Shown piece after piece: positions 6,509 through 43,194 of a stretch of DNA of 64,000 bases. How positions within the stretch are numbered: the first letter of the stretch is position 1; each line of letters begins with the position of its first letter. The notes beneath the pieces are model-generated. The model was not told the origin of the DNA and made no database searches. It saw only the letters and a list, made by a program, of their open reading frames with translations. This DNA comes from Eledone cirrhosa (Eukaryota), in assembly GCA_964016885.1 (NCBI GenBank), contig OZ024758.1, positions 23,870,001 through 23,934,000 of the forward strand, read 5' to 3'. The translations under genes and the position numbers were made by a program.

Positions 6509-6897
6509 GAGGGCAATCCCAAAAGTAAGGTCTCCTTCCGATATTGCAACTTTTCCGTTAAAATCCTGTGGATGGTGCTTCGGGAATCCTCAGGAACCAA
6601 AATGCAGGGAGCATCCAGAGTGATCCGCCGATCTTTACGCATGTTTTCCTCGGAAGGAGACCTTACTTTTGGGATTGCCCTCGTATGTAATAACTGCGCG
6701 AAATTCGCACTTGGCGGTAGTGTTCAACGGGAGCTCCATTCTCAACGGCTGCCAAGTCAAGATTGAGCATCCCAGTGAAGCGCGCGCATGCTTGTTTGGG
6801 AGTGAAGGAAGCACCAATCACAACAGTGTTGCCAACAGCCATACGAACAGTTTCTCTACGTCCCCATCGCTTTGGAGACCTTACTTTTGGGATTACC

Positions 6898-10883: not shown

Positions 10884-10984
10884 CACACCAAAATTATATT
10901 AAAGATGTCGTCAGAGAATATCAGAATCATGCGCCATACCACCAAGTAGTAAATCCGAGCATTTATATTAAATCAAAAGTAGGA

Positions 10985-11020
<36 letters not shown>

Positions 11021-11285
11021 CCGGAAAAAATGAAACGATATTTCATTTCCCACTCTTAGTACGGCTGTTACTTAAATATAAGTATGTACACGTACATACA
11101 TATATGTATACCGACGTACAGTAGTATGTATATATATATATACATACATGCACACATATATATATGCACGTATGGATTCACCGAACATTTATTATAATGC
11201 TCGGTGTGTTTGTAAACAAACATCCCGTATTAAGCCGTAGTGTCTAGCAACCACCGTTGCTCGTTTGTTCAACACTGACAAAGGA

Positions 11286-11328
11286 ACGCTGTACTAGTTT
11301 CAAGCTTGTTAGCTATCGTCAGCAACGT
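11286..11328 (-). ncRNA. Type I hammerhead ribozyme, unit 1
   Basis: ACGTTG-CTGACGA-T.AGCT.AACA.AGCT.T-GAAA-CTAG-TA-CAGCGT. Confidence 0.85.
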
Positions 11329-11707
11329 ATACCTTCCTGCCAGATTGTTGAACGTATATACTTACCTTATGCATATTAACGGCTGAGTAGCCCAATATGC
11401 ATATCGAGTGGGTTAATCGGCCGGGTGCACCGAAAACGATAAACGGAAAAAATGAAACGATATTTCATTTCCCACTCTTAGTACGGCTGTTACTTAAATA
11501 TAAGTATGTACACGTACATACATATATGTATACCGACGTACAGTAGTATGTATATATATATATACATACATGCACACATATATATATGCACGTATGGATT
11601 CACCGAACATTTATTATAATGCTCGGTGTGTTTGTAAACAAACATCCCGTATTAAGCCGTAGTGTCTAGCAACCACCGTTGCTCGTTTGTTCAACACTGA
11701 CAAAGGA

Positions 11708-11750
11708 ACGCTGTACTAGTTTCAAGCTTGTTAGCTATCGTCAGCAACGT
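11708..11750 (-). ncRNA. Type I hammerhead ribozyme, unit 2
   Basis: Same sequence as 11286-11328, offset 422. Confidence 0.85.
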
Positions 11751-12129
11751 ATACCTTCCTGCCAGATTGTTGAACGTATATACTTACCTTATGCATATTA
11801 ACGGCTGAGTAGCCCAATATGCATATCGAGTGGGTTAATCGGCCGGGTGCACCGAAAACGATAAACGGAAAAAATGAAACGATATTTCATTTCCCACTCT
11901 TAGTACGGCTGTTACTTAAATATAAGTATGTACACGTACATACATATATGTATACCGACGTACAGTAGTATGTATATATATATATACATACATGCACACA
12001 TATATATATGCACGTATGGATTCACCGAACATTTATTATAATGCTCGGTGTGTTTGTAAACAAACATCCCGTATTAAGCCGTAGTGTCTAGCAACCACCG
12101 TTGCTCGTTTGTTCAACACTGACAAAGGA

Positions 12130-12172
12130 ACGCTGTACTAGTTTCAAGCTTGTTAGCTATCGTCAGCAACGT
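12130..12172 (-). ncRNA. Type I hammerhead ribozyme, unit 3
   Basis: Same sequence as 11286-11328, offset 844. Confidence 0.85.
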
Positions 12173-12411
12173 ATACCTTCCTGCCAGATTGTTGAACGTA
12201 TATACTTACCTTATGCATATTAACGGCTGAGTAGCCCAATATGCATATCGAGTGGGTTAATCGGCCGGGTGCACCGAAAACGATAAACGGAAAAAATGCA
12301 ACCATATATATACATACTACTGTACGTCGGTATACATATATGTATGTACGTGTACATACTTATATATATAACGATATTAACAAATGGAAACTATATTTAT
12401 AAAACCATATT

Positions 12412-12476
12412 TATTTCATTATACATATTTCAAGGACAACAAGTTAAATTATGGTGTGCTTTCATCAGACAAAATA
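12412..12476 (-). ncRNA. Hammerhead motif, family C
   Basis: TATTTTGT-CTGATGA-AAG.C..C.CTT-GAAA-TATGTA-TA-ATGAAATA. Confidence 0.65.
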
Positions 12477-12567
12477 TAATATAGATCAGTTTTATAAATA
12501 AATATTGACATACCCTTAAAAAATGCAACCATTACTGTTGGAAGCTCCCGGATAGTGGAGTTGTTTA

Positions 12568-12664: not shown

Positions 12665-14908
12665 ATATCTCTTTTACCCTTTTACCTGTTTCAGCCATCC
12701 GGCTGAGGCCATGCTGGGGCACCGCCCTTGTTGCTACACATTTTATCTCCAGCCTGTATAGGTTGGCCACTGGTGTAGGAGGGAGTTTGTTGCTGCTGCC
12801 CTTAGGTTTCCCTCGTGTCTTGCTGTGGGCTCATCCGGGATCCTGGATAACAAGGTGTCGAGATGTTTCTTAAAGACATCCACCTCCACGTCATGCAAGT
12901 CTCGCAGATGCCTCGGCAACCTGTTGAAGAGTTGAGGGCCCTTGAATCCCAGGCTATTGCAATACCTGCTCCTTATTCTAGATGTGGAAGACGGGACCTT
13001 TGGCACCACACAGTGACGTCCTGTTCGACGGTTGGTCCAGCTCCCAATGCCAAAGTTTGGTGCTAGTCCCTCCAGGATTTTCCACATGTAGATCACTGCG
13101 TATCTCTTCCGTCTTCGTTCCAAGGAGTAGAGGTTCAGTTCCTTTAGCCTCTCCCAGTAGCTTGTCTCCCTCATCTTGGCAATCCTCTTGGTGTAGCTTC
13201 GCTGGATTGCCTCAAGCTCCGTGGTTAGTTTGACACTATGGGGTGACCACAGCTGGGAGCAGTAGTCCAGGCGGCTTAGGACAAAAGTCCTCCACAGTGT
13301 CAACATAGTGTCTCGATCTCTTGTAAGGAAAGTCCTCAAGATCCAGCCAGCAAATCGTCTGCATGTTGTCGCCACCTTCATGATGTGTGAAGAAAAAGAT
13401 GCATCATCGCTCATGTCTATGCCCAGGTCTCGTATCGATTTTGACACGGGGATATCGGTCCCTCCTGGTCCTGTGTAGCCGTGTTCCGCTATATTTGTGT
13501 TTGTGTTTGCAGGTTTGTATTGTAGGGCTTGGAATTTGCCAGCATTAAACTGCATGTTGTTGTCTTCCGCCCATCTGTATATGGCATCCAGATCCTGCTG
13601 TAAGAGGGCAGCGTCAGCCGGGTTTTTGATTGCCTGTGCTACCTTAGTGTCATCAGCATAGCTAGTGAGGGATGTTGTTGCATGCACCACAGAGGGCATG
13701 TCCGAGAGAGCCACCAAAAACAGTAGTGGTCCCAGGACTGTCCCCTGGGGCACCCCACTTGTTATCGGTGTTTCCCTCGAGAGGGCCCCATTTGTTGCGA
13801 CTGCCTGGCTTCTGTCCCTTAGGAAGCCATGCAGCCACTCACCTACTTTTCCAGCTATGCCGAGTCCGTGTAGTTTATGACATATCATTCCGTGGTCGAC
13901 CTTGTCAAAGGCCTTCGCAAAGTCAAGATATATCACGTCTACATGTGAGCTGTCTAGTAGTTGTCTCAGTACCCAGTCGTAGTGATGTAGCAGCTGTGTA
14001 AGGCAGCTTCTTCCTGGGCGGAAGCCATGTTGCGTGCTAGTCAGGCGGTCATTTTCTTCGAGGAAAGTGATTAGTTTCTTTCTGACGACTCGCTCCATGA
14101 CCTTACTGATATGCGACGTCAGGGAGACTGGCCTATAGTTCTTGGCCTCCGCTCTACTACCTCCTTTATGGATAGGGCATATTGTGCCTTCTTTCAGCTC
14201 CCTGGGTAGTACACCGCTAGCCAAGGAGCTTCTGAAGAGCATCTTCAGTGGAGTTGCTAAGGCCCGCTTACATATTTTTAGGAGAACTGCTGGGAATCCA
14301 TCAGGTCCAGCAGCCGAGTCTGTTCTAATTTCATCAATGGCGTACACCACATCCTCCTCCGTTATGTCTATGTGGTTGATGGTTGCCATTTCTTGATGTA
14401 GTGTTGTGGCATCAAAGAACTCCTCTGGCTTCGTTATTTGCATGTGCCTCAGTGGACATGTGAAGACACTTTTGTACTGTTCGTTCAGTATTTCACATAT
14501 CTCTTGGGGATTTTCGGTTAATGAACCGTCCGTGTGGAAGAGTGGTCCAATCTTGCAGTGTACTGAGGCAGTTTCTTTTGCAAATTTAAAGAAGGCCTTA
14601 GGGTTTGTTTTAATGTTTTCTATGGCCCTGTTCTCTTTCTTTGCCCTCTCATTCTCATGTGAAAGTTTGAGTGCAATCTCGGTGTCAAGTGCATGTTTCA
14701 AATAGGATTCCTTCTTGTTTTGGTTTTGTTGACTATTCAACTGGTTTGAGAGTTTAGTTCTACGTCTCATAAGGATTTTCCTATCTCTGGGAATAAGATT
14801 TTTGTGTGTGTTTGCCTCTTTCTCCGGGACACACTTTTTGCATATGGTGTGTATCGTTGTCATGAAGTGTTGAAATTGTGTGTTAGTGTCTTGTGTGGCG
14901 ATAATCAA
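12665..14908 (-). mobile_element. 5'-truncated CR1-group LINE
   Basis: RT ORF followed by a short 3' UTR GGCGGTGCCCCAGCATGGCCTCAGCCGGATGGCTGAAACAGGTAAAAG; no endonuclease domain in the window. Confidence 0.9.
12743..14908 (-). CDS. LINE ORF2 reverse transcriptase (N-terminally truncated, 721 codons open)
   Basis: GPDG, NYRPVSLTS, QHGFRPGRSC, YLDFAKAFDKVDH, GVPQGTVLGPLLF, YADDTK, DLGI, RLDYCSQLWSP motifs. The listed start is not a real initiator. Confidence 0.92.
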   Translation of the reverse strand: MIIATQDTNTQFQHFMTTIHTICKKCVPEKEANTHKNLIPRDRKILMRRRTKLSNQLNSQQNQNKKESYLKHALDTEIALKLSHENERAKKENRAIENIKTNPKAFFKFAKETASVHCKIGPLFHTDGSLTENPQEICEILNEQYKSVFTCPLRHMQITKPEEFFDATTLHQEMATINHIDITEEDVVYAIDEIRTDSAAGPDGFPAVLLKICKRALATPLKMLFRSSLASGVLPRELKEGTICPIHKGGSRAEAKNYRPVSLTSHISKVMERVVRKKLITFLEENDRLTSTQHGFRPGRSCLTQLLHHYDWVLRQLLDSSHVDVIYLDFAKAFDKVDHGMICHKLHGLGIAGKVGEWLHGFLRDRSQAVATNGALSRETPITSGVPQGTVLGPLLFLVALSDMPSVVHATTSLTSYADDTKVAQAIKNPADAALLQQDLDAIYRWAEDNNMQFNAGKFQALQYKPANTNTNIAEHGYTGPGGTDIPVSKSIRDLGIDMSDDASFSSHIMKVATTCRRFAGWILRTFLTRDRDTMLTLWRTFVLSRLDYCSQLWSPHSVKLTTELEAIQRSYTKRIAKMRETSYWERLKELNLYSLERRRKRYAVIYMWKILEGLAPNFGIGSWTNRRTGRHCVVPKVPSSTSRIRSRYCNSLGFKGPQLFNRLPRHLRDLHDVEVDVFKKHLDTLLSRIPDEPTARHEGNLRAAATNSLLHQWPTYTGWR

Positions 14909-42754: not shown

Positions 42755-42783
<29 letters not shown>

Positions 42784-42788
<5 letters not shown>

Positions 42789-43194
42789 GGAAAAAATGAA
42801 ACGAAATTTCATTTCTCACTCTTAGTACGGCTGTTACATAAATATAAGTATGTATACGTACATACATATATGTATACAGACGTACAGCAGTATGTATATA
42901 TATACATACATACATACACACATATATATATATGTACGTATGGATTTACCGAACATTTATTATAATGCTCGGTGTGTTTGTAAACAAACATCTCGAATTA
43001 AGCCGTACAGTGTTTAGCAACCATCGTTGCCCTTTTGTTCAACACTGACAAAGGAACGATGTACTAGTTTCAAGCTTATTAGCTATCGTCAGCACCGTAT
43101 ACATTCCTTGAACGTCTGAAAGTATATACTTTCCTTATGCATATTAACGGCTGAGCATCCTAATTTGTATATCGAGTGAGTTAATCGGCTGGGC
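42784..43194 (-). mobile_element. Diverged monomer of the 422-bp hammerhead element
   Basis: Colinear with 11023-11430, between (TA)n tracts. Confidence 0.9.
43056..43098 (-). ncRNA. Type I hammerhead ribozyme
   Basis: ACGGTG-CTGACGA-T.AGCT.AATA.AGCT.T-GAAA-CTAG-TA-CATCGT. Confidence 0.85.

Follow-up and report, generated by a model that had tools for sequence, protein, structure and literature searches.

Animal non-LTR retrozymes are a described class (Cervera and de la Pena 2020, PMC7229834; review, PMC7761336), for which an origin from Penelope-like elements (PLEs) has already been proposed. The connection so far rests on co-occurrence and on pLTR similarity. The accessible portion of the 2020 review presents retrozyme repeats as having no conserved motif that would indicate a helper (PMC7761336). 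When predicted retrozyme dimers from frogs were assayed in vitro, one of nine cleaved, according to the available text of Li, Clavereau and Pollet (2026, 10.64898/2026.07.22.740005).

Insertions of EN+ PLEs, in the accessible part of Craig et al. (2021, 10.1101/2021.04.23.441226), show four features: partial tandem copies; an inverted, 5′-truncated copy; a tail of 30–40 bp on one end; and a bias toward microsatellites. How such tandem and inverted insertions are made is named there as an open question. Frangieh et al. (2024, PMC11167929) report, in the text available, that a PLE protein in vitro cuts and extends both strands, with two internal start sites that bound the tail; the protein is predicted to be a dimer. 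For the anole PLE, they report that ribozyme mutants are without effect on insertion and that uncut RNA is the main substrate. The pairing of the two ends of a single insertion is not reported in the portions available.

Here we analyze a 64,000-nucleotide stretch of Eledone cirrhosa DNA (the window) and follow one of its repeats through the genome. The locus is one young two-armed insertion, in (TA)n, of a dispersed non-coding repeat family. A preliminary description of the window had noted three apparently identical 422-bp units, and indeed the tandem units at 11023–11444, 11445–11866, and 11867–12288 differ at 0 of 422 positions. Exact 422-bp periodicity extends from 11022 to 12298 (TRF: 11017–12307, period 422, 3.1 copies). 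The array had been taken for a free-standing tandem; instead, it is the long arm of the insertion (11017–12298, minus strand), comprising 3.04 units. With the unit numbered from p1, the base directly after the predicted ribozyme cut, to p422, the last base ahead of it, this arm has its ribozyme-strand 3′ end at p275 (11017) and is truncated on its 5′ side at p260 (12298). The terminal 59 nucleotides (11017–11075, minus strand; p217–p275), here termed the tail, occur at the long end only and contain one private change, at 11021 (p271). The G at p271 was considered as a family-wide priming mark, and was rejected as private to the window copy.

Five bases that match neither arm (12299–12303) separate the two 5′ ends. 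The short inverted arm follows (12304–12365, plus strand; p155–p216): its 62 bp are the exact reverse complement of 11076–11137, and it ends at the family's second fixed 3′ end, next to a short AT run. The preliminary description had placed an inverted internal copy at about 12307–12365; the inverted piece is real, but it starts at 12304 and constitutes the insertion's second arm. The hairpins named there are present in the window sequence, as is the bordering (TA)n tract at the long end (10987–11019), whose final bases are common to tract and arm end. The region has a GC content of 0.36, and no ORF of at least 60 aa lies within the array. The left flank was considered as an older relative of the unit, and was rejected on finding a single 19-base match only. 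Two sequencing runs, conjecturally of RNA (X1 and X2), gave only short matches, at a microsatellite-like hairpin and at the array end, with no bearing on expression.

Other features lie nearby. Another type I hammerhead-like motif, distinct from that of the unit and longer in its helix II region, lies at about 12415–12476 (minus strand); the repeat fragment that contains it shares the AT run at the end of the short arm, and recurs in loci L043, L045, and L052. A 721-aa ORF occupies 12743–14908 (minus strand) and, judged by its motifs, resembles a LINE reverse transcriptase rather than a PLE. Elsewhere, locus L156 contains (at 6700 and 7159, plus strand) a second retrozyme-like family, with a 459-bp tandem unit, another type I hammerhead (long helix II), and a (TA)n end.

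The complete type I hammerhead that had been described for each unit reads, on the minus strand, as a 43-nt motif in all three: 11286–11328, 11708–11750, and 12130–12172, with predicted cuts at 11292/11291, 11714/11713, and 12136/12135, respectively. These positions, and the two exact 422-nt monomers between them, agree with those first proposed; cut to cut, the predicted circular RNAs span 11714–12135 and 11292–11713 (minus strand). A strict descriptor (6-bp helix I, CUGANGA, 4-bp helix II, GAAA, 4-nt loop, UH) found four matches in the window, namely the three array units and an older copy at 43092, versus 0 matches over 200 shuffles of the 64-kb sequence in two-base blocks. Rfam hammerhead models gave no match at gathering score across the window, and were absent from the 106 matches at E≤10 over 10900–12500. 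The Rfam miRNA matches, all under gathering score, were set aside as noise from (TA)-rich hairpins.

Divergent copies bear on the integrity of the ribozyme. Five pair types occur at the helix I pair p389–p3 (U-G, G-U, U-A, A-U, and C-G) across copies examined with the anchor outside the core. The window unit differs from an 85%-identical subfamily by 70 fixed substitutions, three of them within the 43-nt hammerhead; those three are a G-U flip at p389–p3 and a change at the free N7 position. It had been suggested that the core be compared with the rest of the unit: the 12 core bases do come out as invariant (0 changes in 84 cells, versus 12–34% in other regions), in a comparison of seven rows from a single lineage, picked with an anchor that covers half of the core. 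Together with the compensatory changes in helix I, these sequences suggest that the hammerhead core has been kept across subfamilies 15% apart.

Folding predictions favor a double hammerhead, and thereby lend support to the earlier idea of a dimer-dependent ribozyme acting through a palindromic helix III. The double hammerhead lies 1.9 kcal/mol above the predicted minimum, versus 18.5 for two single hammerheads; in two further subfamily copies the corresponding values are +0.9 and +2.5, versus +16.9 and +19.5 kcal/mol. (A double-hammerhead model was reportedly put forward for newt satellite 2 by Forster et al. in 1988.) When a natural stretch with two ribozymes is folded, both helix I stems are predicted in their strand-swapped form (p about 0.6), the local form having a probability of 0. 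The probability is 0.01 each for helix II and for the palindrome duplex, and the minimum-energy fold is not the active fold, which counts against an explanation through retrozyme circles. For the circular monomer, helices I and II are predicted to form (p 0.45–1.0), with a helix III of one pair. The 422-nt monomer is strongly self-paired (z −7.4 linear, −8.6 circular, and −6.2 minus the microsatellite hairpin), and 11 of its 149 predicted pairs have changed on both sides, versus 0–8 in slid controls.

A genome-wide search with the unit, as the preliminary description had advised, revealed a dispersed, young, multi-copy family: 251 matches came from the 40 of 256 candidate places that were scored, and the 150 matches listed are 99–100% identical. 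The first 29 loci, chosen for high identity, contain 164 complete monomers, of which 96 match the window unit exactly. Pattern counts across the 3.0-Gb genome, for which each reversed-pattern control gave 0, found 453 exact long-end (p275) junctions; 1,399 exact short-end (p216) junctions, by a pattern that also fits older subfamilies; 1,709 exact ribozymes; and 26,711 relaxed hammerhead-core matches. Older subfamilies have units of 419–538 bp, with identity down to 83–85%. The dispersed young copies, along with a core kept across subfamilies, support the original retrozyme reading. An older copy lies within the window itself (42783–43193, minus strand; 92% identity, 374/406), with a p275 end in (AT)n and an intact hammerhead, at 43092, that has the G-U form of helix I.

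Two-armed insertions of this family have one long and one short fixed end. Of 29 loci chosen for a full-length match, 23 consist of two divergent arms that meet at variable 5′ ends and whose outer ends could both be resolved; the other six comprise four single-armed loci, one with an N gap, and one that is complex. In 22 of the 23, including the window, one arm ends at p274–275 and the other at p216–219, both into (AT)n; the exception, L042, has two long ends. A second sample, drawn to lessen selection bias, consisted of the first 60 unfetched p275 junction stretches on contig C1, and contained 62 junctions (of which the two in L068 are near-duplicates, and those in L070, L085, and L124 were assigned separately). 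An inverted arm ends at p209–219 in 33 of these, is ambiguous in one, and ends at the long site in one; 27 have no second arm. When second arms of at least 15 nt are considered (five shorter arms being left out), 28 of 29 insertions have one end of each kind. Finally, when exact junctions were paired over the first 205 Mb of C1, 17 of 18 divergent pairs proved long-short, with one short-short and no long-long pair. Each tally departs from independent choice of ends (p below 1e-4), the three sets being overlapping rather than independent. Subfamilies down to 85% identity also use the p216 and p275 ends.

Arms range from 25 to about 7,000 nt, or up to 16 units, with a median of 416 nt. Their joins often contain 1–4 shared bases or a few extra bases, and the (TA)n targets mask any target-site duplication. 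The 59-nt tail plus the inversion is a PLE signature, and its presence at the insertion ends supports PLE-type mobilization; the earlier proposal of mobilization in trans by a Penelope-like reverse transcriptase has gained accordingly.

Two further patterns concern the joins. Loci L065, L074, L079, and L085 share a common minimal form, with a 30-nt long arm, an 11-nt short arm, and a CAT overlap, which would represent either a microhomology join that arose repeatedly or a very small mobile derivative. In L038, L045, L058, and L035, private changes seem denser in the units by the arm junction; error-prone joining or assembly error at the palindrome center may account for this appearance.

The same genome contains PLEs. 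A GIY-YIG search gave abundant matches (150 of 150 scored, from 10,595 candidates), and autonomous PLE ORFs with RT and C-terminal GIY-YIG were found. Family A, of the Neptune type, is represented by 91 scored copies at 98–100% protein identity, many with open frames of 775 aa. It inserts in (TA)n, has two end sites 63 nt apart, and pairs a long with a short end in all 13 of its simple inverted copies (from 26 loci, the rest being complex or having one end seen). In family B the tail is about 40 nt long, and L170 displays the same long-short pairing. A young, active PLE in this genome bears the same end marks as the retrozyme, and movement of the retrozyme by a PLE is very likely.

Hammerhead-like motifs occur in families A and B too, and at helix III these have a palindromic hexamer. 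The family A motif (L225–L244 and L155) has a variant core, TTGAAAA replacing CUGANGA, and an ACCGGT palindrome, and lies about 150 nt from the long end. By blastn, the retrozyme unit has no significant DNA similarity to either family; among the few PLE families sampled, the best local score of the unit against the family A end has p of about 0.05, and that against family B is not significant. No pLTR homology to the unit was found in 50 GIY-YIG loci. Family A is a candidate helper by age, target, and tail length only.

What, then, was the template? In a junction-picked sample of 87 arms, with 91 approaches to the predicted cut site, 0 stops fall within 1 nt and 3 within 5 nt (versus 2.1 expected), and 58 of the 87 arms cross the site. 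The first locus set (48 arms, 195 approaches; L040, L047, and L052 left out of the stop count) has one stop within 5 nt. Priming sites p216 and p275 are far from the cut. Arms thus pass the cut site without stopping, so the template was continuous there: either a circle or an uncut multimer. An apparent cluster of 5′ ends just beyond the cut, at p389–412, was not significant (scan p 0.57, 0.96, and 0.61).

Rare variants provide a second view of the template. These were traced in 67 young insertions (of 88), leaving out variants present in at least three insertions, positions p119–167, and insertions under 300 aligned bases. Nineteen cases, in 12 insertions, fill every covering unit, 15 of them in both arms (L222 has two variants in 9/9 units); 10 variants fill only some units and 125 are confined to one. 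Old subfamily alleles may account for a few of these 19. The whole-insertion variants fit a single template sequence for both arms, together with a one-unit bottleneck; copying from a homogeneous source array would look alike. A-to-I editing was not supported as their source (A>G 6 versus T>C 4, p 0.54): although A>G makes up a larger share here than in the single-unit variants (p 0.02), G>A and C>T dominate that latter set. In a single case, L089, A>G changes in one arm and T>C in the other (ribozyme strand) resemble what an edited fold-back transcript spanning the entire insertion would leave. Later rearrangement is evident as well: L210 contains a period-2 (two-unit) duplication; a J49 variant occupies 13 of 21 units; and L068 and L081 have arms of mixed lineage. 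These cases were counted against a pure circle picture.

This suggests a model for the window locus, namely a young two-armed insertion in (TA)n of a hammerhead retrozyme that a PLE enzyme probably copied from circular RNA. Read-through transcription of the ribozyme strand would generate a multimer; the strand has T4–T6 runs, making Pol III unlikely. Neighboring hammerheads, if they fold as predicted, would pair through the ACUAGU palindrome as a double hammerhead and cut out 422-nt monomers, and a host ligase could circularize these, as is known for other retrozymes. Because a lone hammerhead in the circle would have a helix III of only 1 bp, the circle should be stable. Next, a PLE protein that targets TA repeats and probably acts as a dimer would cut both (TA)n strands and prime two cDNAs, each DNA end using a different one of two internal sites separated by 59 nt. 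The distance that each RT travels round the template would vary, and the far ends of the two cDNAs would finally be joined. Failure to extend one DNA end would leave a single arm. Some long arrays expanded further once inserted. The 27 of 62 junctions without a second arm were counted against this two-ended scheme. A circular template we judge likely on balance. The more specific proposal is tentative: a PLE dimer may occupy one RNA circle, with one start site per DNA end and both RTs rolling round the same molecule, such that its variants fill both arms.

The chief alternative, unlikely yet deserving serious attention, retains the two-ended PLE insertion but takes as template an uncut linear multimer from a homogeneous source array; the hammerhead would cut rarely or serve another step, and circles would be absent or a by-product. 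If source arrays are homogeneous, as the 96 identical monomers among 164 might indicate, this accounts equally well for identical units and for arms that run through the cut. Even then, the rare variants that fill the units of both arms demand a one-unit bottleneck somewhere, and arms of up to 16 units exceed most source arrays (judged by the median arm, 416 nt). Mixed arms in L068 and L081 could derive from heterogeneous transcripts, and the predicted minimum does differ from the active fold, whereas the ribozyme core has apparently been kept across subfamilies. Evidence from other systems also cuts both ways. The anole PLE's use of uncut RNA favors a linear template (PMC11167929), and eight of the nine frog dimers were without cleavage (10.64898/2026.07.22.740005); by contrast, the accessible text of PMC7229834 reports abundant retrozyme circles in coral, mussel, and axolotl.

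It is very improbable that short non-autonomous PLE insertions, no longer than a monomer, grew into tandems later by unequal crossover or slippage, in which case the tandem form would say nothing about the template. Post-insertion duplication is visible in L210 and likely in J49, and Li et al. propose, in their available text, that pLTR-derived units amplify locally (10.64898/2026.07.22.740005). However, the 58 junction-picked arms that already cross the cut include many under two units, which have no repeat to recombine; arm lengths are not whole multiples, with 5′ ends scattered along the unit; and the two arms of an insertion can both be multi-unit with common variants. A DNA-level satellite or an assembly artifact with a chance hammerhead look-alike is scarcely credible and already largely refuted, for although an assembly can produce perfect identity and palindromes, and Rfam has no match, the empty shuffles, the compensatory helix I changes, the spread over many contigs of hundreds of copies whose ends are fixed and paired, and the unit sequence in contigs from two other runs (X6 and X7, of a kind not on record) all speak against it.

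If twin priming on a circle is true, the arms provide direct evidence for rolling-circle, PLE-driven spread of animal retrozymes, and the tail-plus-inversion structure of PLEs is explained in one step. The family is very young, and its hundreds of clean insertions have countable ends; they bear PLE marks, follow a one-long-one-short rule that an active PLE of this genome also follows, and read through the ribozyme site. For tests of circular versus linear template and of coordinated two-strand priming, the family supplies the substrate (422 nt), the target, two start sites already mapped, and a candidate enzyme.

How does the family compare with known systems? Plant LTR retrozymes have type III hammerheads in two LTRs, with PBS and PPT, whereas the hammerheads here are of type I and lie in tandem units. 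An autonomous PLE has an ORF for RT and GIY-YIG, and the array has none. Satellite 2 of newts and salamanders, in the available text of PMC7229834, likewise repeats in tandem with a period of a few hundred bases and has a weak helix III; its transcripts cleave as dimers.

Neptune-type EN+ PLEs, as far as the accessible descriptions go, share with this family partial tandems, an inverted truncated copy, a tail on one end, microsatellite targets, two start sites, and a minimal hammerhead. The family differs from EN+ PLEs in its lack of an ORF and in its tail length (59 nt, versus the 30–40 bp described). In addition, the whole element here is one repeated unit, so arms can span many units. The available text of Frangieh et al. 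finds start sites no different between strands (PMC11167929), whereas in the genomic pairs here the two ends of an insertion differ in the site used.

The closest match is with animal non-LTR retrozymes. In the portions of that literature at hand, both they and this family consist of non-coding tandem units of 150–450 bp, with GC below 50% and one type I hammerhead per unit; both have a self-paired monomer and no LTR, PBS, or PPT seen; and both are dispersed in genomes that also contain PLEs. Axolotl HHR_Amex1, which works as a dimer, has the same one-pair helix III and palindromic tetraloop (PMC7229834, available text); most invertebrate retrozyme ribozymes, by the same partial sources, instead have a stable helix III and cut as monomers. 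Homology to pLTRs is present in 24 of 57 frog families in the accessible text of Li, Clavereau and Pollet (2026, 10.64898/2026.07.22.740005), and none was found here among the few PLE families sampled. Cleavage and circles have been demonstrated for animal retrozymes; in this family they are predictions from sequence and folding. Our literature search, which drew mostly on titles and abstract openings, with subscription journals and Repbase outside its reach, found no cephalopod retrozyme and no paired retrozyme arm ends. Two divergent arms with two fixed ends occur here and are not described in the available text of the retrozyme papers (PMC7229834, PMC7761336, and 10.64898/2026.07.22.740005). 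The family belongs to a described class, the animal non-LTR retrozymes, and its value lies in its insertion record.
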